From Elusimicrobiota bacterium (lineage in GTDB: Bacteria > Elusimicrobiota > Elusimicrobia > Elusimicrobiales > UBA9959), in the NCBI GenBank assembly GCA_027340875.1, contig DAIENX010000092.1:1-22617 (forward strand): a stretch of DNA of 22,617 nucleotides, given 5' to 3'. The notes beneath the pieces were generated by a model. The model made no database searches and was not told the DNA's origin. It worked only from the letters and a program-made list of their open reading frames with translations. Both the position numbers and the translations under genes were made by a program. This document shows positions 10,124-20,148 of the stretch, piece by piece (position 1 is the stretch's first letter; every line of letters begins with the position of its first letter).

Positions 10124-10408
10124 TCATTTGTGGGAGGTGACGGCGTCAGCGGGAGCGGTAGAGGTCTGGAGCTGGTCAAGCTTTCTGAGTATTTCCGGAT
10201 CGCCTTTGAGGTCTACGGTCCGGGCTTCATCCAAAATAGGCTCGATGCGGGGCAGGACCTTCGCGCCGGGAGGAAGCGGCGTCGTACCGTCGGATACCGG
10301 CACCTTCGGGGACAGCAGCACGGGCGCGGAGGGTCTTGGAAAGAGGAAATAAACCGCCGCGCCGGCCGCGAGAACGGCCAGAGCGGCGTATATCAGCGTC
10401 CTCCGCAT
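10124..10408 (-). CDS. Hypothetical membrane-anchored or exported protein, 94 aa
   Basis: MRR followed by a hydrophobic helix (TLIYAALAVLAAGAAVYFLF) and a Pro-rich tail. ATG is 1 nt after the stop of the DUF1116 gene. Confidence 0.6.
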   Translation of the reverse strand: MRRTLIYAALAVLAAGAAVYFLFPRPSAPVLLSPKVPVSDGTTPLPPGAKVLPRIEPILDEARTVDLKGDPEILRKLDQLQTSTAPADAVTSHK

Positions 10409-10409
10409 T

Positions 10410-11804
10410 CTATTTCAGAGCCTTCGCGAAGTGCTCGAAGGCTCGGGCGAAGGGCTCGGGGGGGGCGCTGAGCACGCCCGCGCCCACCTGGCCCACGCCC
10501 GGCTCCTTGTGCGCGACGCCGGTGTCGATGAACGGCAGGATGCCGGTCTTCGCCACCTTTATAACGTCTATGCCCGTAGGAGTGCCGCGGAAGTCCAGCG
10601 CCGGTATCTTGTAGATACTGCTCTCTGCCGCCGTTATCCCGTACATGGCCATAGTATAGCCGGCCGCGTCCGAGGCGCTGCCGCCCACGAACTGCACTAT
10701 AGCCGGCGCCGCAGCTATAGCGAAGCCGCCGAGGCCGTTGGTCTCGGTGATGGCCGAATCTCCGATATCGGGGTTCGCGTCCGCCTTGGAGTAGCCGGGG
10801 AAGTACAGCGCGTCCGGCACCGGCGCAGGTCCTGTGAACCACTTACCGCCCGTGCCCGACAGCTGCACGCCGAAATCCGTGCCGTTGCGCGCCATCACCA
10901 CCACGACGCTGGAGTCCTTGATGTTCCGGCCGGCGTCCAGCGAGGCCTTGGACAGCGCCATGGACAGGTTCAGGAAGAAATGGTCGTTGCCGTTGACGAA
11001 ATCCAGCACCTTGGCGGCCGTCTCGGGGTCCTTGCAGGTCCTGATGACGGCCGGAGCTATCGCGCGGTAGAACAGCGAGGTGCCGGCGCGGTTGCGGTTA
11101 TGCACCTCGTCGCCCATATGCAGGGCCTGCGCCACCATGGACTTAAGGTCCACCCTCCCGAGGAACTCTATGGCGTCCCTGAGCGCCGGGTAGAGCACCT
11201 TCTCCATCCATTTCAGGCGCTCTATCACCTCCGGGGAGTAGGCGCCGTAGCGCAGCACCTTGCCGAGGCCTTCGTTCTGCGTGGCATAGGCTAAGTTGCC
11301 GTGCTCCTCGTTCTTCACGATGAAGACCGGCATCGACGCGGAAATAATGCCCGCCATAGGCCCTACGGCGCCGTGCTCATGGCAGGGCTCGTACTTGATC
11401 CTGCCGGAGGCCGCCAGCCGCTCCGCCTCCTCAGGCGTTTTCGCGAGGCCCTCGTACATCAGCGCGGCCATGATGCCGCCTCGCATGGGCCCGCACATCC
11501 GGTCCCAGGTCACCGGGGGCCCGGCGTGGAGTATCAGGTCCTTGCGCATCCCGGGGATAACGTCCAGGGCTGTGCCCATGCCTACGAGGGCCGGCTTCGC
11601 GGCCAGTATCCTCTCCATGGCCTTCCGGTTGGCCTTCTCGACGCGAACGGAGGCTTTCGCCGCTTTCGCGAAGAGAGAAGCGTCGGATACCAGCGGCGGC
11701 TTGAACTTGGCATGCACCGCTTTCACTCCGGAATCGCGGAGCCCCTGCATGAAAGATTCCAGGCCGATATTCACCACTTTGAGCTCGGTTTCGAAAAATC
11801 CCAT
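10410..11804 (-). CDS. DUF1116 YahG/YlbE(AllG)-like protein, putative oxamate carbamoyltransferase subunit
   Basis: ILHAGPPVTWDRMCGPMRG, PCHEHGAVGPMAG, GKVLRYGA, QALHMGDEVHNRN, NDHFFLNL, MARNGTDFG, DIGDSAITET, GVGQVGAG. It has a YahG-type N-terminal extension (VVNIGLESF). Start refined to ATG 11804 behind SD GAGGTG; GTG 11813 is an alternative. Confidence 0.88.
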   Translation of the reverse strand: MGFFETELKVVNIGLESFMQGLRDSGVKAVHAKFKPPLVSDASLFAKAAKASVRVEKANRKAMERILAAKPALVGMGTALDVIPGMRKDLILHAGPPVTWDRMCGPMRGGIMAALMYEGLAKTPEEAERLAASGRIKYEPCHEHGAVGPMAGIISASMPVFIVKNEEHGNLAYATQNEGLGKVLRYGAYSPEVIERLKWMEKVLYPALRDAIEFLGRVDLKSMVAQALHMGDEVHNRNRAGTSLFYRAIAPAVIRTCKDPETAAKVLDFVNGNDHFFLNLSMALSKASLDAGRNIKDSSVVVVMARNGTDFGVQLSGTGGKWFTGPAPVPDALYFPGYSKADANPDIGDSAITETNGLGGFAIAAAPAIVQFVGGSASDAAGYTMAMYGITAAESSIYKIPALDFRGTPTGIDVIKVAKTGILPFIDTGVAHKEPGVGQVGAGVLSAPPEPFARAFEHFAKALK

Positions 11805-11809
11805 AGCGT

Positions 11810-13360
11810 TCACCTCTTAGCGGAAAGCCGTATTATCTCTCCGGCCAGGCGGCAGGCCGCCGCGTTGGAAGGCATGACAAGCACGCCCTCGGCCTCCAGG
11901 GCCTTGACCACCCTGGAGCGCACCTGGGGATCGGCCTCGGTCCCGGTGACGGAAGCCACGATGGAAAGCGCGCGATCGGACCTGAAGGCCTCGCGCAGCG
12001 GGGGGAGTATATCATCGAGCGGCTTCAGGTTGGAACCGTAGCCGAGGACCAGGTCCAGGAGCAGCACCGAGACCTCGGGCTTCCTGGCCTCCGCGACTAT
12101 CATCCTGTTGCGCAACGAGAAGTCTATCATCGGATGGGGACGCCCTACGGTGAACTCGTCCTCGCCCAGGTCTATCACGGCGTGGCCGGAAAGCTTCATG
12201 GAGTCCGACAGCTTGAGCTTCCTATCCAGCGGAGCGTTGGACCTAACCTCGCCTATCAGCTCCGGGAGTATCACCTGGGCCTCGCTGACGAAAGTGCCGC
12301 CGGAGAACAGGCCGCGCAGGAACCCGGCTTTCTTCTTGGACGCGGCGGCCTTCTTCGCGAGGGCGGCGGCCTTGAGGTTCATATCGTAGATGACCTCCCT
12401 GGCCTTGCCTATTTCCTGCCCTTTACCCAGCGCCGAGGCCTTAAGCGCGGCTTCCTCCAGCGTCCTGGCCGGATAGAAACCGTCCCTCACCTTCTCCTTT
12501 ATGTCGCCGCCCAGCAGCACGGCCACCACGGGCTTCTTTATACGCTTCACCTCGGCCAGTATCTTCTTAAGTATCGCCGGGTGCGGCGGCTTGGCCACCA
12601 GCAGTATCACTCCCGTGCCGGGATCAGCGGCGAGCATCCTGAGAGCCTGCAGGAAGGTCAGAGCGCCGACCTCCCGCTTCACGTCCCGGCCGCCGGTGCC
12701 GATGCACTGGGAGATGCCGGACCCGTCGTTGGAGATCAGCGTGGTGACCTCCTGCGCGCCGGTGCCGGATGCGGCGACCACGCCGATATTCCCGCGGCGC
12801 ACCGCGTTGGCGAAGGCTATGGGCGAGCCGTTGATGATGGCGGTGCCGCAGTCCGGCCCCATGACCAGCAGTCCTTTCTTCACGGCGGCCTTTTTCAGCG
12901 CCACCTCGGTTGCCACCGGGACGTTATCGGAAAAAAGCATCACGTTCATACCCCGCTCGATACAGTCGGAAGCCAGCGCGCCGGCGAAGCGCCCCGCCAC
13001 GGAGATGACGGCCAGATTGGCGCCGTCGAGCATTCCGGCGGCCTCGTCCAGGCCGGAGGCCTTGCGGTCCGGGCCCGCCGCGGACTCCGCCTTCTTGTTC
13101 AGCAGGTCGTCAGCCGCTTTCAGCGCCGCCTCCGCGGCTTCCGGACCGCGCGCGCTTACGGCTATGGCCAGGTCATTGTCCCCGGCGCTCTGTATCTCCG
13201 GTGTAAGCAGCCCCGAGGCCTTGATGATGCCCTTGTTCTCCGGTGTGGCCATGACCACGGCGGACTCCTCCACCCCAGGCATCGAGCGCAGCACGCTCGC
13301 GGCCTGCATCAGCATCACCGAGTCGTAATACGCGCCTTTCTTGATAACAGTCTTGATCAT
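11810..13360 (-). CDS. fdrA: Acyl-CoA-synthetase-like FdrA/YahF(AllF) protein
   Basis: YYDSVMLM, MATPENK, MLFSDNV, LVMGPDCGTAII, ASGTGAQE, IGTGGRD, GLFSGGT, DLGEDEFTVGRPHPMID, DLVLGYGS, VTGTEADPQ. SD AAGGA. Confidence 0.92.
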   Translation of the reverse strand: MIKTVIKKGAYYDSVMLMQAASVLRSMPGVEESAVVMATPENKGIIKASGLLTPEIQSAGDNDLAIAVSARGPEAAEAALKAADDLLNKKAESAAGPDRKASGLDEAAGMLDGANLAVISVAGRFAGALASDCIERGMNVMLFSDNVPVATEVALKKAAVKKGLLVMGPDCGTAIINGSPIAFANAVRRGNIGVVAASGTGAQEVTTLISNDGSGISQCIGTGGRDVKREVGALTFLQALRMLAADPGTGVILLVAKPPHPAILKKILAEVKRIKKPVVAVLLGGDIKEKVRDGFYPARTLEEAALKASALGKGQEIGKAREVIYDMNLKAAALAKKAAASKKKAGFLRGLFSGGTFVSEAQVILPELIGEVRSNAPLDRKLKLSDSMKLSGHAVIDLGEDEFTVGRPHPMIDFSLRNRMIVAEARKPEVSVLLLDLVLGYGSNLKPLDDILPPLREAFRSDRALSIVASVTGTEADPQVRSRVVKALEAEGVLVMPSNAAACRLAGEIIRLSAKR

Positions 13361-13391
13361 AAATCGTCCTTAGAGCAATCAATCTACAGGA

Positions 13392-13510
13392 GGAAGAGAG
13401 CCGGGATGAAAAACCGTCGCGGAGGGAGGAGCTTGCTTAAGCGCGACGACTGAGTGACGAGGCGCGCGCACGGTGTGCGCGACGCCGTGTTTTTCAGACC
13501 GATCTCTTCC
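13392..13510. repeat. Nested inverted-repeat intergenic element (MITE/REP-like or structured RNA)
   Basis: Paired arms are GGAAGAGA(13392-99)/TCTCTTCC(13503-10), TGAAAAAC(13407-14)/GTTTTTCA(13489-96) and CGTCGCG(13415-21)/CGCGACG(13478-84). There is also an inner hairpin GCGCAC-GGT-GTGCGC. Confidence 0.6.
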
Positions 13511-13514
13511 GATC

Positions 13515-14276
13515 CTACTGCCAGGGAAAGCTTTTTCTCTCTCCGATGAACGGGAAGCGCTCGCGGGTCTTGGCCACCAGTTCCTTGTCCAGCGGCGCGT
13601 CGGCGAGGTAGATGCCTTCCTTAGTGCCGGCATCCACTACCACCTTGCCGAGCGGGTCGAAGCACATCGAATTACCGGAGTACTCGATCTTGCCTTCCAT
13701 GCCCACCCGGTCCACGCCTATGCAGTAGGCCTGGTTCTCCACCGCCCTGGCGCGCAGAAGCGTCATCCAGTGTTCCGCGCGGCGCATCGGCCAGGCCGCT
13801 ATAACCACGTACACGTCGACGTCCTTGGCCTTGTTCCAGAACAGATAGGGGAAGCGCAGGTCGAAGCAGACGGCCGGCATGACCCGCAGGCCGTCCAGCC
13901 TGAAGACCTCCTGCTTCGAACCGGAATTGTAGTGCTTGTCCTCGCCACCGAACGCGTACAGGTGGATCTTGGAATACGTGTTGACCCGGTTGCCCTTGCG
14001 GTCGAGCGTGATCAGGTTGTTGTAGCTCTTCTCCACTCCGCCGTAGGAGATATTGATGCCGTTCTCCGCGGCCAGGCCCGAAAAGAACGCGTGGTCCTCG
14101 TCGGTGAGCTCGGCCACGGCCGTGTTCATCGTGAAGCCGGAGAGGGTCATCTCGGAGAAGACCAGCCAGTCCATCTCGGAGCGCCGCTTGTAATCCGTAA
14201 GCAGGTCCTCGATCCTGGTCTTGTTGGCGTCCTTGTCCTCCCACTTGATGTCGTACTGGCAGAGCGCTACTTTCAT
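13515..14276 (-). CDS. Carbon-nitrogen hydrolase (nitrilase superfamily), omega-amidase YafV/MtnU-like
   Basis: Glu-Lys-Cys triad in FSEM, YSKIHLY and VCFDLRFP. Also AAWP, HWMTLLRARAVENQ and YSGNS. SD AAGGAG. Confidence 0.88.
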   Translation of the reverse strand: MKVALCQYDIKWEDKDANKTRIEDLLTDYKRRSEMDWLVFSEMTLSGFTMNTAVAELTDEDHAFFSGLAAENGINISYGGVEKSYNNLITLDRKGNRVNTYSKIHLYAFGGEDKHYNSGSKQEVFRLDGLRVMPAVCFDLRFPYLFWNKAKDVDVYVVIAAWPMRRAEHWMTLLRARAVENQAYCIGVDRVGMEGKIEYSGNSMCFDPLGKVVVDAGTKEGIYLADAPLDKELVAKTRERFPFIGERKSFPWQ

Positions 14277-14296
14277 GTTGTCTCCTTAAGAACCGT

Positions 14297-16696
14297 TCAC
14301 TTCTTCCCGGGCCGGGATGCCAGCGCCACTTTCTCCTTAGTGACCGGCATGGATCTCACCCGCACGCCCAGCGCGTCGGCTACCGCGTTGGCTATCAGCG
14401 GCGCGCAGGGGATCATCGTGTGCTCGCCGACGCCGCGGGCCCCGAAAGGGCCGTCCGGCTGTGCCACCTCGATGATTATCGGCACCACCTCGTCCGGCAT
14501 GTCCATGGAGGTAGGGATCTTGTAATCCGAGAAGTTAGGGTTGAGGAGCTTGCCCCTGGCGTCATAGCGCATGTCCTCGTAGAGCACCGTGGCGAAGCCC
14601 TGAAGCAGGCCGCCTACCACCTGGCCCCTGACGAGATCGGGATTGATGGCCTTGCCGCAGTCCACGGCGAGCGCAACCTTCTTTATCTTCATCCTGCCCG
14701 TCTCGCGGTCTATCTCCAGTATGATGCCTGCCGCGCCGGTGGTATAGTGGACGTTCGGGTGGCCGCCCTGGCCGGTCTCGGGGTCGCTGATCGCCGAAGC
14801 GAACTCGGGCATGAACACTCCTGAGCCCATGATCGGCCCGCCCTTGAAGGTATGGTCGTCCGCCTGTATGCCGTTTATGACGAAATCCCTGAACGGCAGG
14901 GAGAAGGCCGGCTTGGTGCGGCACTTCACCTTCTCGTCCTCGAGGTACAGGGTGCTCTTGTCCAGGCAGTGCACGCGCTGCACCAGGTCGAAGATGCGCT
15001 CGCGCGCCTCCAGCGCGGCGCGCTTGACCGCGTTGCCGCAGCCCCACGTCACGTGCGAGCCCACGGTCTGCCACTCGTAAGGGTTACGGTCCGTGTCCGG
15101 AGTTTCCACGCGTATCTTGGAGACCGGCACGGAAAGCACCTCGGAGGCTATCTGCGCCATAACGGTCAGCAGGCCCTGGCCTATCTCCATGCCGGAGACC
15201 AGGAGGTTGATGCTGCCGTCCTCGTTGAACTTCAGGAAAGCGCTGGAGCTGGCGTTGGGCGGCATCGCCGGGGACTTCCAGAAGCAGACCAGCGACTTGC
15301 CTATGGCCTTCTTCGGGTCCCTGGACTTCTCCTTCCTTCCCCAGCTTATCTCCTGCTCCACTTTCTCGATAGCCTCGTGGATGCCGGTGGGGTTCATATG
15401 CGCGCCGTAGGGAAGGGTATCGCCCTCCTTGATGGCGTTGCTCTTGCGGAACTGCACCGGGTCCACTCCGAGCTTCTCGGCCATGCGGGTGATGTGGGAC
15501 TCCAGGCCGAAGAGGAACTCGGAGTAGCCGAAACCGCGGTAGGCTCCGCAGGGGGGAAGGTTGGTATAGGTGCACATCGAGTCCACGCTCAGGTTGTCCA
15601 CCTTGTAAGGGCCGCTGGCAGACAGGCCGGCGGCGTTGACGACGTTGGCGCCGTACTCGACGTAGGCGCCCGCGTCCCAGTGCAGCTTGAAGTCGAGGGC
15701 GGTTATCTTGCCGGTCTTCGTGGCGCCCATCTTTATTTTCGCGGTGACGCCGAGGCGCTGGTAGGTGTTGTAGAACTCCTGCGCGCGGCTCCACAGCAGC
15801 TTGACCGGGCGGCCCGGGACCGCTATGGCCAGCGCGGCCGCTATGATCTCCATCGTGACGCCGGCCTTCCCGCCGAAGCCGCCTCCGATGTAGGTGCTGA
15901 TCACTCGCACGTCCTTATGGCCGATGCCGAAGGCCTTCAGCGTCTCGGCGAAGACGTGGCGCTGGGTGAACGGCGACTGGGACGAGGTCCACATCGTCAG
16001 GCGGCCGGAGGCGTCGTACAGGCCGACGGCCGAATGCGGCTCGATAGCGCAGTGGGCGTAGCGCGGGACGTAATAGGTGTCCTCCAGCACGAGATCGGCC
16101 TCTTTGAATCCCTTCTCCAGGTCTCCCTTGCGGATCTTGCGCCAGTGGGCGATGTTTGTGCCCGGCTTCGGGAAGAACCAGGGCACGTGCTGGTAATCCT
16201 TGAGGTCGGGATGGACGAGGGGGGAGTCCTTCTCCAACGCCTTCACTGCGTCCAGCACGGCCGGCAGCTCCTGGTAGTTCACCTTGACCAGGGCGGCGCC
16301 GCGCAGGGCCACTTTAGGGTCCGTGGCCACCACGGCGGCGACCTGCTCTCCGACGAAGCGCACGACGTCGCTGGCGAAAATGTACCTGTCGTTCATGTAC
16401 AGGCCGAACTTGTGGATGAAATTGCGTCCGGTGACCACCTTGACCACGCCGTCGAGCTTCTCGGCCTCGGAGGTGTCTATGGATTTTATCCTGGCATGGG
16501 CGTAAGGGCTCTCCACGAGCGCCGCATAGAGCAGGCCCGGTCCGAATTCCAGATCGTCCGTGTATTTCGCCGCGCCGCGTATCTTCTCCCAGCCGTCGAC
16601 GCGCTGTACCGATTTGCCGACCACCTCGAGCCCGCCCATCTTTTCGGCGCGGACGCCGTTTTTCCCCGGCTTGCTCTTTACTTTCGGAAGATGCAT
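14297..16696 (-). CDS. Xanthine dehydrogenase-family molybdenum hydroxylase, molybdopterin-binding subunit
   Basis: SPYAHARI, VRFVGEQVAAV, HCAIEPH, IGGGFGGK, GAYRGFG, EIGQG, DCGKAINP..GQVVGG, FSDYKIPT, GPFGARGVGE (catalytic Glu). SD GGAGG. Confidence 0.95.
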   Translation of the reverse strand: MHLPKVKSKPGKNGVRAEKMGGLEVVGKSVQRVDGWEKIRGAAKYTDDLEFGPGLLYAALVESPYAHARIKSIDTSEAEKLDGVVKVVTGRNFIHKFGLYMNDRYIFASDVVRFVGEQVAAVVATDPKVALRGAALVKVNYQELPAVLDAVKALEKDSPLVHPDLKDYQHVPWFFPKPGTNIAHWRKIRKGDLEKGFKEADLVLEDTYYVPRYAHCAIEPHSAVGLYDASGRLTMWTSSQSPFTQRHVFAETLKAFGIGHKDVRVISTYIGGGFGGKAGVTMEIIAAALAIAVPGRPVKLLWSRAQEFYNTYQRLGVTAKIKMGATKTGKITALDFKLHWDAGAYVEYGANVVNAAGLSASGPYKVDNLSVDSMCTYTNLPPCGAYRGFGYSEFLFGLESHITRMAEKLGVDPVQFRKSNAIKEGDTLPYGAHMNPTGIHEAIEKVEQEISWGRKEKSRDPKKAIGKSLVCFWKSPAMPPNASSSAFLKFNEDGSINLLVSGMEIGQGLLTVMAQIASEVLSVPVSKIRVETPDTDRNPYEWQTVGSHVTWGCGNAVKRAALEARERIFDLVQRVHCLDKSTLYLEDEKVKCRTKPAFSLPFRDFVINGIQADDHTFKGGPIMGSGVFMPEFASAISDPETGQGGHPNVHYTTGAAGIILEIDRETGRMKIKKVALAVDCGKAINPDLVRGQVVGGLLQGFATVLYEDMRYDARGKLLNPNFSDYKIPTSMDMPDEVVPIIIEVAQPDGPFGARGVGEHTMIPCAPLIANAVADALGVRVRSMPVTKEKVALASRPGKK

Positions 16697-16718
16697 ATCC
16701 CCTCCAGATATCTGCGCG

Positions 16719-17156
16719 CTATTTGGAACGTTTCCGGTACGCGTCCGGAGCCTGCGGCGCGGGTGCGCAGTTGGTCATGGTGAAGTTTACCGGCGAAGGC
16801 ACCCTCTGGTTCCCCTGGCCGTAAAATCCGCCCTGCACGCACTGCCCGGCAGCCACGGGCAGCGCCTCTATCTTCACGGGATCCAGCGTCATCATCCCAG
16901 GCTGGCCGCGCCAAAGCCTGCGGACGCGGTAGCGAAGCGGGGCGTAGCCGGCAAAACCGTCGTTCACCTGGATGCGCGCGCCCGGAGGCTCGGACGCGAC
17001 GTCAACGGTCTCGTCTACGTACGGGGCGCTCTCCTGAGGCTGGGACATAAAAGGAAGGGGCTTCTTCGCGGCCGGGGAGGCGCCGTACCTCCCCGGCTGG
17101 GGCATGGCGCAGGCGGAAAGGCACAGAAGCGAGAAAAGGGACAGGGCCGTTCTCAT
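16719..17156 (-). CDS. PEGA-domain lipoprotein
   Basis: Signal peptide with lipobox LSA-C. VASEPPGARIQVNDGFAGYAP matches the PEGA pattern SxPxGAxVxVDGxxxGxTP. ATG is 1 nt after the Fe-S subunit stop. Confidence 0.75.
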   Translation of the reverse strand: MRTALSLFSLLCLSACAMPQPGRYGASPAAKKPLPFMSQPQESAPYVDETVDVASEPPGARIQVNDGFAGYAPLRYRVRRLWRGQPGMMTLDPVKIEALPVAAGQCVQGGFYGQGNQRVPSPVNFTMTNCAPAPQAPDAYRKRSK

Positions 17157-17157
17157 A

Positions 17158-17625
17158 TCAGCGCCCCTTGGCCGTCTCAGCTATGGCCCTGACTATCGGC
17201 TCGTAGCCGGTGCAGCGGCAGAGATTCCCGGCGATGGCCTCTTTTATGTCGTGCTCCGAGGCGGCCGGGTTCTTTTCCAGCAGCTCGGTGGCTGAAAGGA
17301 TGACGCCGGGCGCGCAGAAGCCGCACTGGAACGCGTTCCTCTCATGGAACTTCTTCTGCAGTTTCTGGGTCCACTTGCGGTTATTGGCGCCTTCCAGCGT
17401 CACTATCTGCGCGCCGTCGGCCTCCACGGCAAGGGCCAGGCAGGAGCGCACGGTACGGCCGTTCATCAGCACCGTGCAGGTGCCGCAGTCGCCGCGGTCG
17501 CAGCCGACCTTAGGGCTCTTTATCCCCAGCCTTCCGCGCAGAACGTCCAGCAGCACGTCGTTGGGGTCCACCGTGACGGCGACCGCCTCGCCGTTGAGTT
17601 CGAACTTTATATCGTGGCTTTTCAT
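17158..17625 (-). CDS. Molybdenum hydroxylase 2x[2Fe-2S] subunit (XdhC/CoxS-like)
   Basis: GCDRGDCGTC...SC and QCGFCAPG...GNLCRCTGY. Confidence 0.95.
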   Translation of the reverse strand: MKSHDIKFELNGEAVAVTVDPNDVLLDVLRGRLGIKSPKVGCDRGDCGTCTVLMNGRTVRSCLALAVEADGAQIVTLEGANNRKWTQKLQKKFHERNAFQCGFCAPGVILSATELLEKNPAASEHDIKEAIAGNLCRCTGYEPIVRAIAETAKGR

Positions 17626-17637
17626 CGGGATCTCCGT

Positions 17638-18531
17638 TCAGCAGATGCTGCCGGCGCCGTACTTCGGGCCCTTGCCGAAAAGGCGGGAAACCGCCGCCTG
17701 CAGAGCGCGCTCCAGCATCACCTGCGCCATGTGCAGGCGGTATTCCTTCGAGGAGCGTATATCGCTGATGGGCGAGAGTTCGCCCAGCAGCGCCTCCTTG
17801 GCCTTCTCCAGCACCTTCGGGCCGAGCTTACTGCCGTTCAGTACGGCCTCGGTCTTAGGACAGCGTCCTGGAACGGGGCCAAGCGCGCAGGCCGCGACCC
17901 GGTAGGTAGTATCGGAGAGGACGAGGGCCGCTATCCCGCCCTGGGCGAGGTCCTCTCCCTCGTAGCGGGAAAGCTTCATGTAGCTTCCGCCGTGCTTCAG
18001 CACGGGGACAGGGAGCTCTATCGCGGTCAACAGTTCTTCGGGCTGCAGCGCGGTGCGCTTCGGGCCGGTGAACCAGTCCGCCAGCGGGATCCGGCGCTCG
18101 CCCTTGAGGCTGCGGACCAGCACCTCGGCTTCGTACAGGGCCAGGGCCGGGGCCGAATCGGCGGAAGGGACGGCGGAGCAGATATTCCCAGCGACGGTAG
18201 CCCTGTTGCGTACTCCGGCGGAAGCCACGGTCAGAGCGGCCTCCCAGAGCACAGGGAACCGCTCCTTCACCTGCGCGGACTCGATGATGTCCGTGAACGT
18301 CGCCAGAGCGCCGATGCGCAGCGTGCGGGCGCTGAGCGAAAGACCGCCGAGCTCCGGCAGGGACTTCACGTCGACCACCACCTCCGGCCTGACCAGCCCT
18401 TCCTTTAGGTGGACGACAAGATCGGTCCCTCCGGCCAGAGCCCTGGCCTTCTCCTTGTAAAGCGAAAAGACATGGAGAGCCTCCTCCATGTCCTTAGGTC
18501 TGACGTACTCGAATTCTGCGGTTATAGGCAT
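17638..18531 (-). CDS. Molybdenum hydroxylase FAD-binding subunit (XdhB/CoxM-like)
   Basis: LAGGTDL, RIGA, VRNRATVAGN, AVPSAD, PISDIRSSKEYR. SD GGAGGAG. Confidence 0.95.
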   Translation of the reverse strand: MPITAEFEYVRPKDMEEALHVFSLYKEKARALAGGTDLVVHLKEGLVRPEVVVDVKSLPELGGLSLSARTLRIGALATFTDIIESAQVKERFPVLWEAALTVASAGVRNRATVAGNICSAVPSADSAPALALYEAEVLVRSLKGERRIPLADWFTGPKRTALQPEELLTAIELPVPVLKHGGSYMKLSRYEGEDLAQGGIAALVLSDTTYRVAACALGPVPGRCPKTEAVLNGSKLGPKVLEKAKEALLGELSPISDIRSSKEYRLHMAQVMLERALQAAVSRLFGKGPKYGAGSIC

Positions 18532-18552
18532 ATCTCCTCCGGCCTCGCCGGC

Positions 18553-18577
18553 GGGCCGGCCGATAATCGGCCGGCCC
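18553..18577. other. Intergenic GC-rich palindrome / hairpin
   Basis: GGGCCGGCCGAT-A-ATCGGCCGGCCC: perfect 12-bp arms with no U-tract on either side. Confidence 0.7.
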
Positions 18578-18586
18578 TTGGCGGTC

Positions 18587-19399
18587 TCAGGCGGTCCAGG
18601 CCACTACGCGGCCCATCGACGACTCCAGCTCCATGCCCTTCAAGGGGAAGAAGCCGAGCCAGCAGCGCTTGTTCGAGAGCTTGTCTATCTCGCCGCCGAG
18701 GTTCTCGGCGTGCACGAGGCGCTTCGGGAACAGCTTCAGGTGCATCACCTGATAGTACTCCTCGGTCGGGAACATGTCGTCCCACTTCTGGCCGTACGTT
18801 GCCACCAGCTTGTTCTCGGCCTCGATGAACAGCTTCGGGTGCCAGTTGCGGATGATCGTGTTCATCGGGTGGTCGGCGGAGCCGCAGTCCACGCCTATCC
18901 ACTTGAACTTCATGTCCAGCGCCCATTTATGGAAGCGCGGCCCCGGTCCGGGATGCTTGCAGAAGTAACGCACCTCGTCGGAGTTCTTCTCGTACCAGGC
19001 GTACTTGTGGTAGCCGGTGTTGATGATAAGGATGTCGCCCTTGCGGATATCGGCGCGCTTCATCAGCGTCTCGGGCTCGTAGAGGCCGTAGTCCCCTACG
19101 TCCTTGGAGATGTCGACCACTACGGCGGGGCCGGTCCACTCGCGCATCGGCACCTGCCCTATCGTGCGGCCGGCGCCGAAAAAGTGTATCTCTCCGTCCA
19201 TATGCGTGCCGACATGGTTGGAGGTCTTTATTATCTGGCCGTTGGCGCCCTGGCCCATGTGCGCTCCGGCTATCCGCTTGAAGTACTGTACCTGCAGCGG
19301 CATGTAGCTGGGCCACGGGGGGGTATGCACGCTGAGCGGCTGCGTCAGGTCGTACATTTTGGCCTTATCTAGGAATTTTATAAAGTCGTTGGGTTTCAT
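18587..19399 (-). CDS. Cyclase-family (kynurenine formamidase / isatin hydrolase-like) metal-dependent hydrolase
   Basis: YDLTQPL, HVGTHMD (HxGTHxD), GPAVVVDI, GDILIINTG, HPG, GVD..SAD, HAENL, FPLK...RVVA. Start refined to ATG 19399 (MKPNDF) with SD AGGAG. Confidence 0.9.
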   Translation of the reverse strand: MKPNDFIKFLDKAKMYDLTQPLSVHTPPWPSYMPLQVQYFKRIAGAHMGQGANGQIIKTSNHVGTHMDGEIHFFGAGRTIGQVPMREWTGPAVVVDISKDVGDYGLYEPETLMKRADIRKGDILIINTGYHKYAWYEKNSDEVRYFCKHPGPGPRFHKWALDMKFKWIGVDCGSADHPMNTIIRNWHPKLFIEAENKLVATYGQKWDDMFPTEEYYQVMHLKLFPKRLVHAENLGGEIDKLSNKRCWLGFFPLKGMELESSMGRVVAWTA

Positions 19400-19503: not shown

Positions 19504-19532
19504 ATTCTAACAAATGCAGGGGGGCAAATAAA
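19504..19532 (-). promoter_or_regulatory. Putative extended -10 promoter, TTTATT-N17-TAGAAT (TGn-TAGAAT)
   Basis: Minus strand -10 TAGAAT (19509-19504) is preceded by TGT. The weak -35 TTTATT (19532-19527) is at 17 bp. The -10 hexamer is the same as at 1123. Confidence 0.55.
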
Positions 19533-19557: not shown

Positions 19558-20148
19558 TCAGCCGGCGGTCTTGGGATAAAGACTCCGGGCGCAGTCCGGG
19601 CACAAACCGTGGGAGAGGTTAACGTCAGGCGAGGCTTGCTTGATGTAGACTTCCACGCGCTCCCAGACGCCGTCGGACGAGCGGATACGCTTGCATGAGG
19701 AGCAGATGGGGAGCAGGGAGCGCATCTCCACCAGTTCGGAGATGTCCTCCAGCACTACTATGGCGTAAAGTCTGTCCCCATAGGAAAAAGGCGAGGCAGA
19801 TATCAGAACCGAGACGCCACGCGCGATGCCGGCATGCTTGACAGTGATGTCGAGGCGGCGCCGTTTGACGCTGGTACCGGCAAGCGCCTCGCTCACCGAG
19901 CCCCGGATGACGCAGTCGGCGCAGGAAGGGCCGCTGCCGCATCCTTCTGAGACATCGTCGGAGTGGATGCAGTGCATCAGCTCCCCGGCGCGGGTCCCGT
20001 ACAGTCTGCCGTCCTCTCCGGCCAGCAGTTCCGCCGCGGCCTTGTTGCGGAAGAAGACGCGGGCGTCGTCGTCCATCACCATCACGATGGACGGCACCGC
20101 GTCCAAGGCGTGGCGCATGAACGCCGCGGTGCCGGAAAGATCCGCCAC
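19558..20148 (-). CDS. Cys-rich PAS-domain protein with C-terminal CxxC...HxxCxxC putative zinc-binding module
   Basis: PAS-like ALDAVPSIVMVMDDDARVFFRNKAA...VVLEDISE. Internal C-x9-C-x5-C-x2-C. Tail LLPICSSCKRIR..W..VEVYI..NLSHGLCPDC. GTG is 1 nt after the proS stop. Confidence 0.8.
   Translation of the reverse strand: MADLSGTAAFMRHALDAVPSIVMVMDDDARVFFRNKAAAELLAGEDGRLYGTRAGELMHCIHSDDVSEGCGSGPSCADCVIRGSVSEALAGTSVKRRRLDITVKHAGIARGVSVLISASPFSYGDRLYAIVVLEDISELVEMRSLLPICSSCKRIRSSDGVWERVEVYIKQASPDVNLSHGLCPDCARSLYPKTAG

Follow-up and report, generated by a model that had tools for sequence, protein, structure and literature searches.

A conserved Elusimicrobiota operon with a cyclase-family hydrolase, a molybdenum hydroxylase and AllF/AllG homologues: a candidate variant of oxidative pyrimidine breakdown

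The operon and its conservation

The window analysed here is a 22,617-nucleotide (nt) stretch of DNA from an Elusimicrobiota bacterium of the order Elusimicrobiales (GenBank assembly GCA_027340875.1, contig DAIENX010000092.1, positions 1 to 22,617). It carries a closely spaced operon of eight genes that run in one direction on the minus strand (10410-19399). A first-pass annotation, made from the letters alone, had described these eight co-directional genes and named their families, and this description is confirmed by the positions of the open reading frames (ORFs) together with Pfam and NCBIfam profiles. The gaps between the genes, from the cyclase to allG, are 55, 12, 1, 22, 20, 154 and -4 nt. 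Taken together, our data indicate that the cluster is real and that it probably represents an as yet uncharacterised form of oxidative pyrimidine breakdown. The route that we consider probable would lead from uracil or thymine via barbiturate and ureidomalonate to carbamoyl phosphate and malonamate, and from malonamate to malonate and ammonia; the enzyme roles in it are predictions from homology and gene context. The features of the locus are:

19504..19532, minus strand: promoter-like motif (TG-n-TAGAAT, extended -10), found with blastn in 26 related loci
18587..19399, minus strand: cyclase-family metal hydrolase (PF04199)
17638..18531, minus strand: flavin adenine dinucleotide (FAD) subunit of the molybdenum (Mo) hydroxylase, XdhB-like (PF00941, PF03450)
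17158..17625, minus strand: subunit with 2x[2Fe-2S], XdhC-like (PF00111, PF01799)
16719..17156, minus strand: PEGA-like lipoprotein ORF of 145 amino acids (aa) (PEGA match below the Pfam cut-off)
14297..16696, minus strand: Mo (molybdopterin) subunit, XdhA-like (Pfam and NCBIfam profiles)
13515..14276, minus strand: C-N hydrolase, nitrilase-family amidase (PF00795)
13410..13493, no strand given: dispersed non-coding repeat (41 other matches in the genome)
11810..13360, minus strand: FdrA/AllF-family subunit (NF004760, 484 bits; cut-off 433)
10410..11813, minus strand: AllG/DUF1116 subunit (PF06545, 327 bits)
10124..10408, minus strand: ORF of 94 aa that follows allG after 1 nt and is hydrophobic at its N-terminus

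FdrA alone reaches a function-specific NCBIfam cut-off; the cyclase, the amidase and all subunits of the Mo enzyme stay below such a cut-off. The ninth ORF of 94 aa, the repeat in the 154-nt gap and the absence of allH had been overlooked in the first-pass annotation.

The distribution of the operon was assessed by searching a set of species genomes with the cyclase, which gave 531 matching stretches, of which the best 80 were examined. The closest relatives of the cyclase belong to Elusimicrobiales, where the operon is placed between proS and rimP-nusA-infB. Besides further Elusimicrobiota, these 80 loci include some from Cloacimonadota, Ignavibacteria, Acidobacteriota, Verrucomicrobiota, Edwardsbacteria, Planctomycetota and Undinarchaeota. 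Genes for xdh adjoin the cyclase in 77 of the 80 loci, so that the pairing is not due to chance; two of the three exceptions stop at a contig edge. Either allF or allG lies within the fetched flank in 51 of the 80, many of the loci being incomplete. The operon is real and uncharacterised and is shared by several phyla of microbes not yet in culture, and the co-occurrence of this cyclase clade with xdh and fdrA/DUF1116 that the first-pass annotation had proposed to survey is found across phyla. Three Undinarchaeota loci (L067, L068, L102) carry the cyclase (80% identity) and xdhBCA, with no allF, allG or allH in their flanks. One Planctomycetota cyclase among the 80 stands alone.

DNA of the window was found in four mine-drainage metagenome runs of one study, and no RNA dataset was among the listed runs containing it. 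A search of plasmids for close cultured relatives gave nothing above 36% identity for XdhA or 47% for the cyclase, and no relative of XdhA was found on viral contigs. No publication describing this cluster, or the phosphorolysis of ureidomalonate, turned up in a search of the open-access literature.

The promoter-like motif, 29 nt long, precedes the start of the cyclase gene by about 100 nt and is also found ahead of the cyclase in the 26 related loci. It was present in 16 of 19 rows of an alignment whose rows were picked partly from blastn matches. A sigma-70 scan did not place it (19532-19504) among the promoters listed. The motif is a single copy in the genome, which speaks against an operator that the operon would have in common with the purine genes. 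A riboswitch or other structured leader was also considered and rejected, as Rfam gave no match of note and conservation of the leader is limited to the promoter-like motif. Between proS and the cyclase lies a gene for a PAS-domain protein with a Cys-rich motif at its C-terminus (19558-20148), with homologues in 22 loci; this protein is a possible candidate for a sensor.

Exchange of the cyclase with barbiturase

The cyclase carries the metal motif H62-x-G-T-H66-x-D68 together with H176 and E232, all invariant in 53 homologues. A Foldseek search with its AlphaFold2 model (predicted local distance difference test score of 81) retrieved 3KRV, KynB and isatin hydrolases, a fold family that includes cyclic amidohydrolases. 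The KynB motif HxGTHxDxPxH is altered in the cyclase, which has Glu70 in place of Pro, and the arylformamidase profile TIGR03035 scores 46 bits against a cut-off of 223. With its KynB fold the cyclase lies outside the barbiturase (AtzD/Toblerone) family, and tblastn found no AtzD homologue in the genome. It may nevertheless work like a barbiturase without being a member of that family, and would then bring to this reaction a fold so far not connected with it.

A second survey, in which metagenomes were searched with an archaeal XdhA orthologue, yielded 252 loci. Among the best 80, the cyclase is present in 16, and in 14 its place is taken by an AtzD-family enzyme accompanied by allF/allG. When the 80 loci of each survey were pooled, the cyclase was found in 96, a barbiturase in 14 and both in none of the 160. 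The identification as barbiturase rests on a PDB search with one of the AtzD-family enzymes, for which the closest entry was barbiturase 5HWE (531 bits, as opposed to 307 bits for cyanuric acid hydrolases); the remaining ones share 81-100% identity with this enzyme. NCBIfam labels all 14 as AtzD, its models not separating barbiturase from cyanuric acid hydrolase. In addition, the barbiturase signature Asn/His/Lys/Val/Ala, as given in PMC3758960, is complete in 13 of the 14 and matched at 4 of 5 positions in the truncated fourteenth, and a TrzD control has Arg/Thr/Arg/Gly/Gly. A GNAT-thiolase-ChsH2 block flanks loci of both types (all 14 barbiturase loci and 4 cyclase loci), with GNAT and thiolase about 70% identical between them. 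The simplest reading is that a middle module, consisting of the ring-opener and AllFGH, would have been exchanged between fixed ends. From this exchange we predict, with good confidence, that the cyclase is a barbiturate ring-opener. Tandem double-cyclase proteins were also observed (P0003, P0026 and similar ones, some named from Chloroflexota); the metal motif of their first domain is incomplete.

The molybdenum hydroxylase

The operon encodes a complete XDH-family (xanthine dehydrogenase) molybdenum hydroxylase, with three subunits, the motifs for the molybdenum cofactor (Moco), the catalytic Glu in GVGE and eight Fe-S cysteines (Cys 42, 47, 50, 62, 101, 104, 136 and 138 of the 2Fe-2S subunit). 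Genes for an XdhC chaperone and a MocA-like protein are present on another contig of the genome (C71). The best NCBIfam scores of XdhA are 532 against a cut-off of 995 (4-hydroxybenzoyl-CoA reductase), 508 against 780 (XdhA) and 296 against 850 (XdhB type), so the canonical xanthine dehydrogenase equivalog cut-offs are not reached, and the FAD subunit scores below every NCBIfam cut-off. 4-Hydroxybenzoyl-CoA reductase, which also gave the best PDB match, was rejected since its score amounts to some 50% of the cut-off and no Cys cluster for an extra 4Fe-4S centre is seen in the FAD subunit of 297 aa. The Glu after GGGFGGK and the Arg of the following helix, which we take to be the purine-binding residues Glu802 and Arg880, are both Ala in the XdhA of the window and both kept in the XDH encoded on C71.

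XdhA orthologues from cyclase and barbiturase loci are 66-72% identical to XdhA of the window (66-70% for those linked to barbiturase). Both types fall into one clade with a support of 100, share the motifs of the Moco pocket and active site, and are separated by a short branch (0.059). The Glu and Arg retained by the canonical XDH are missing from both. A difference near the active site is TVGSHVTWG versus TVASHVTWS. Orthologues are encoded with barbiturase and uracil permease, so that they fit a uracil/thymine dehydrogenase by gene context. Based on these relatives, the Mo enzyme very likely acts on uracil or thymine.

AllF, AllG and the loss of allH

The two subunits are homologues of those of the oxamate carbamoyltransferase AllFGH. 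AllF is 39% identical to E. coli AllF, has a match to 3DMY and keeps 92 of 94 near-invariant columns; AllG is 45% identical to E. coli AllG and keeps 148 of 148. Both reading frames are intact. The boundary between the two proteins is shifted, as AllG is a long form that carries the segment which ends E. coli AllF. AllF also resembles the alpha subunit of succinyl-CoA synthetase. The family is not tied to oxalurate, because AllF/G homologues also flank the cyanuric acid hydrolase TrzD. In the operon, AllF/G is likely to act on ureidomalonate.

In 31 of the 35 related loci that span both the amidase gene and allF, the usual third gene, allH (PF11392), is placed between these two. Here, the 154-nt gap at this place is filled by the dispersed repeat. 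Within the genus, allH is present in 19 of 21 allF-bearing genomes and absent in two, and a tree of 28 loci (L038, with a partial allF, was omitted) needs two losses. Thus allH was lost independently at least twice and is deleted in this copy. Mis-assembly is an unlikely cause, since a locus from another genome (L004) has the same layout. In L006, L018 and L038 the gap between amidase and allF is 31-64 nt. A contig from the metagenome runs spans allF into the repeat; none among the contigs listed bridges the repeat as a whole. The repeat itself (about 76-84 nt, two predicted hairpins, no Rfam match) shows a read-depth spike in the four runs, and copies occur in related Elusimicrobiales loci, also upstream of allH.

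On many enterobacterial plasmids, and on pSR8 of Aminobacter (L097), fdrA and DUF1116 genes adjoin genes of the cyanuric acid hydrolase family. This arrangement suggests a capture of carbamoyl phosphate in triazine breakdown.

Amidases, transporters and passenger genes

The nitrilase-family amidase has the triad E42-K103-C137 and is YafV/omega-amidase-like, with PRK10438 as the best NCBIfam profile (156 bits, cut-off 249). It is lineage-specific, being found in 41 loci, all within L003-L057. An amidase of the amidase signature (AS) family replaces it in six loci; for the single one searched, malonamidase E2 was the best PDB match. Nitrilase, AS amidase and GNAT/thiolase (41, 6 and 45 of 160 loci, respectively) were not seen together in any locus, a pattern that reflects lineage and truncation in addition to function. 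Together with the substrate range of omega-amidases, these observations make it on balance more plausible than otherwise that the nitrilase-family enzyme acts on malonamate. The conserved GNAT-fold protein, which has no Pfam match, occurs with thiolase and ChsH2 in the 45 loci (e.g. L072:3903-6171). It was considered as a candidate malonyl-CoA decarboxylase; the GNAT fold was seen, with no decarboxylase among the matches listed.

Six of 21 neighbouring NCS2 transporters were scanned. In each of them the score for UraA or RutG is above that for xanthine permease, and one exceeds the uracil-permease cut-off. Uracil-type permeases flank two cyclase loci, and a permease with 70% identity is encoded on contig C65 of this genome.

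The gene for the PEGA-like lipoprotein is present in 25 of the 160 loci, all within L003-L048. Its Pfam PEGA match is below cut-off in 10 of 10 homologues, and an ESM Atlas search was led by PEGA clusters (0.96). The xdhC-xdhA gap exceeds 300 nt in 39 of 51 loci of L003-L057 versus 3 of 89 other loci, and therefore the gene is likely a passenger at an insertion hot spot and not part of the pathway; its patchy, lineage-limited occurrence likewise led us to reject it as a component. In L003-L057, the xdhC-xdhA junction and others nearby are insertion hot spots inside the operon, with varied small genes and up to 5 kb. The PEGA and amidase genes, which the first-pass annotation had counted as operon genes, are indeed present, but both are lineage-specific rather than core. 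The 94-aa ORF after allG, for which no Pfam or NCBIfam match and no homologue in the surveyed loci or the rest of the genome was found, is likely a passenger as well.

Purine and carbamoyl-phosphate genes elsewhere in the genome

According to PMC12507026, a reductive urate pathway has been noted in Elusimicrobiota, and this genome encodes most of it at other loci. Homologues of ygeW (68%), ygeY (54%), xdhD (43%), hyuA (35%) and ssnA (33%, by a PF01180 oxidoreductase) were found along with a near-canonical XDH; ygeX gave a weak match only. A search for allB, allC, allD, ygeWXY and carbamate kinase had been suggested by the first-pass annotation. It recovered ygeW, ygeY and a carbamate-kinase-like gene and no allC, with weak matches for ygeX and allD. 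The genes ygeW, ygeY, ssnA and the xdhD-like gene lie outside the cluster. No match to allA, allC or allE was found in the genome, and for allD a match of 28% identity was the only one. Neither uricase nor AllC families were found in the genome, and therefore no supply of oxalurate is seen.

The purine-type region C71:22958-45792 (L001, L002) encodes an ssnA-like protein, an 823-aa fused GltD/PreA-like oxidoreductase (UacX-like), an 8-oxoguanine deaminase above cut-off, MocA, the XdhC chaperone, the near-canonical XDH and an XdhD-like enzyme. The carbamate-kinase-like gene, ygeW and ygeY lie on C65:7016-16416 and are not contiguous. In the window, a dihydropyrimidinase/HyuA-like gene beside aspartate kinase (1364-2755; 342 bits, cut-off 393; allantoinase 255) is probably the HyuA of the scattered reductive urate pathway. 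A CoA-transferase pair on contig C13, 56-63% identical to those of L066/L069, was considered as a partner of the operon and rejected; it sits by methylcitrate-type genes and no link was found.

Proposed pathway and alternatives

In the proposed pathway, XdhABC would convert uracil and water to barbiturate in an oxidative, oxygen-independent manner, and the cyclase would hydrolyse barbiturate to ureidomalonate. AllF/G would then convert ureidomalonate and phosphate to malonamate and carbamoyl phosphate, in analogy to the E. coli reaction but with a substrate longer by one carbon. From malonamate, the nitrilase-family amidase would produce malonate and ammonia. Thymine as substrate would lead to methylmalonate. 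Carbamoyl phosphate might yield ATP via the carbamate-kinase-like enzyme encoded elsewhere, or enter biosynthesis. The general logic put forward in the first-pass annotation, an uncharacterised conserved N-heterocycle operon with Mo hydroxylation, ring opening, cleavage by AllF/G and amide hydrolysis, is supported by these data.

A different end point had been proposed there, in which the Mo enzyme makes a vicinal dioxo ring of the purine, pterin, lumazine or hydantoin type, the cyclase gives an oxalurate- or oxamide-type product and AllF/G yields oxamate. The conversion of oxalurate to oxamate is the reaction shown for the E. coli proteins that AllF and AllG resemble (PMC11326118). For the family III CoA-transferase of the Cloacimonadota loci, the top score is that for CoA:oxalate transferase, although it does not reach the cut-off. 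An omega-amidase-like enzyme could also act on oxamate. Set against these points, orthologous Mo enzymes sit with signature-positive barbiturases, the neighbouring permeases are of the uracil type, the alternative amidase is malonamidase-like, and urate is served by other genes of the genome. Moreover, XdhA lacks the presumed purine-binding Glu and Arg of the genome's canonical XDH. We therefore consider the route to oxamate highly improbable. The relatives point to a 1,3-dicarbonyl ring, barbiturate, with malonamate as product, and the view that the substrate cannot be read from sequence was too pessimistic once relatives are compared. It is also conceivable, though unlikely, that the cyclase-type loci have diverged to a related ring, such as a substituted or modified pyrimidine, that still gives an acyl-urea for AllF/G. 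In the approximately unbiased (AU) test, a tree in which the XdhAs of cyclase and barbiturase loci stand apart as two clades is not rejected (p 0.52), AllF/G from cyclase loci belongs to another clade than AllF/G from barbiturase loci, and the small differences near the active site described above would fit such a shift. On the other hand, the branch between the types is short, most pocket motifs are identical, GNAT and thiolase are conserved across types and uracil-type permeases flank the two cyclase loci. Finally, uracil could be the substrate while, in lineages without allH, AllF/G catalyses a different reaction (a cleavage that depends on CoA, or a hydrolysis yielding urea or carbamate), or the operon is decaying with this step nearly dead. 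The missing allH and the similarity of AllF to succinyl-CoA synthetase alpha are in line with this idea, as is the E. coli result that allFG without allH gives 7% of the oxamate (2.9 +/- 3.3 versus 38.3 mM; PMC11326118). Near-complete retention of the near-invariant AllF and AllG residues, the intact frames and the fact that at least two independent losses of allH left the rest of the operon whole make this alternative very unlikely.

Several observations weigh against the uracil/thymine pathway that we favour. The exchange of cyclase and barbiturase appears to be one evolutionary event, so it counts as one observation rather than 14, and it came with a different AllF/G clade. By the AU test, the barbiturase-type XdhAs may nest within the cyclase type or be its sister, and a substrate shift at the split is possible. 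As to the cyclase, the isatin-hydrolase signature GLAS/GLQC is replaced by HAEN, and the KynB-type Glu (HAE232) is present; according to PMC6117287, which describes both features, this Glu may mark linear-amide activity, a point left open there. Cyclases of about 46% identity occur on haloarchaeal plasmids in other contexts, one by a xanthine-type permease and an unrelated XDH. No match to AllH or remnant of it was found in the genome, which is 92% complete, and with the low E. coli yield it is rather doubtful that the AllF/G step would be efficient without AllH. The oxalate-type score of the Cloacimonadota CoA-transferase also belongs here. Searches of the genome for genes that might act on malonate gave neither a malonate decarboxylase alpha nor a GNAT or thiolase/ChsH2 partner. 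Carbamate kinase was found in none of the 160 loci, which makes a gain of ATP a guess, and the carbamate-kinase-like gene of this genome (366 aa) has a split match that falls short of the arcC cut-off.

In PMC3758960, the oxidative route of pyrimidine degradation is presented as rare and as having urea as its end product. The cluster suggests a form, found in several phyla of bacteria and in some archaea, in which the ureido carbon is retained as carbamoyl phosphate, the equivalent of one ATP. We advance only tentatively, and with less confidence than any single enzyme role, the wider claim that a widespread pathway degrades uracil and thymine without oxygen by three new enzyme activities, namely those of a new clade of Mo hydroxylases, of a barbiturase that has the KynB fold and no relation to the known one, and of AllF/G as a ureidomalonate carbamoyltransferase, which in this lineage would work without AllH as a natural two-subunit AllFG. 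If true, AllH would be accessory and AllFG(H) a general family of acyl-urea phosphorylases. The proposal provides testable substrates for an unassigned cyclase clade (531 stretches), for DUF1116/FdrA outside allantoin use and for an XdhA clade easily misannotated as xanthine dehydrogenase, and the copies without allH offer a natural test of the role of AllH.

Comparison with known systems

A related cluster was seen in a cultured actinomycete, Embleya (NZ_CP108785.1; L182:9440-33642). It encodes barbiturase, carbamate kinase, a carboxyltransferase, a CoA-transferase, allHFG, an NCS2 permease, a C-N hydrolase (26% identical to the amidase of the window) and a carbon monoxide dehydrogenase (CODH)-like Mo enzyme of another clade (30% identical to that of the window). 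It likely represents a version of the same route.

In the oxidative pyrimidine pathway, uracil/thymine dehydrogenase, barbiturase and ureidomalonase act in succession (PMC3758960, citing Soong et al. 2001, 2002). The operon shares with it the predicted sequence from uracil via barbiturate to ureidomalonate, and orthologues of its Mo enzyme adjoin barbiturases. It differs in having a KynB-fold cyclase for the Toblerone-fold barbiturase, and AllF/G with an amidase where ureidomalonase gives malonate and urea. E. coli AllF-AllG-AllH with AllK (PMC11326118) has homologous AllF and AllG and the same predicted acyl-urea phosphorolysis, whereas the operon lacks AllH and AllK, the genome lacks AllH, and there are no allantoin genes; the predicted substrate is one CH2 longer and the AllF/AllG boundary is shifted. 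With the KynB and isatin hydrolases (PF04199; PMC6117287) the cyclase shares fold and metal ligands, but identity is 16-20%, and it has HxGTHxDGExH and no GLAS/GLQC motif. The reductive urate (2,8-dioxopurine) pathway (PMC12507026) resembles the proposed route in that a nucleobase is degraded anaerobically, an XDH-family enzyme takes part and a carbamoyl group is released in one of the steps, but it uses different enzymes, and most of this pathway is encoded in the genome at the other loci described above. The trzD cluster of Aminobacter sp. SR38 pSR8 (fdrA, DUF1116, cyanuric acid hydrolase, carbamate kinase, DUF2877) likewise places AllF/G by an opener of cyclic ureides. Its substrate, in contrast, is a triazine, it has no Mo enzyme, and the role of AllF/G there is deduced from context.

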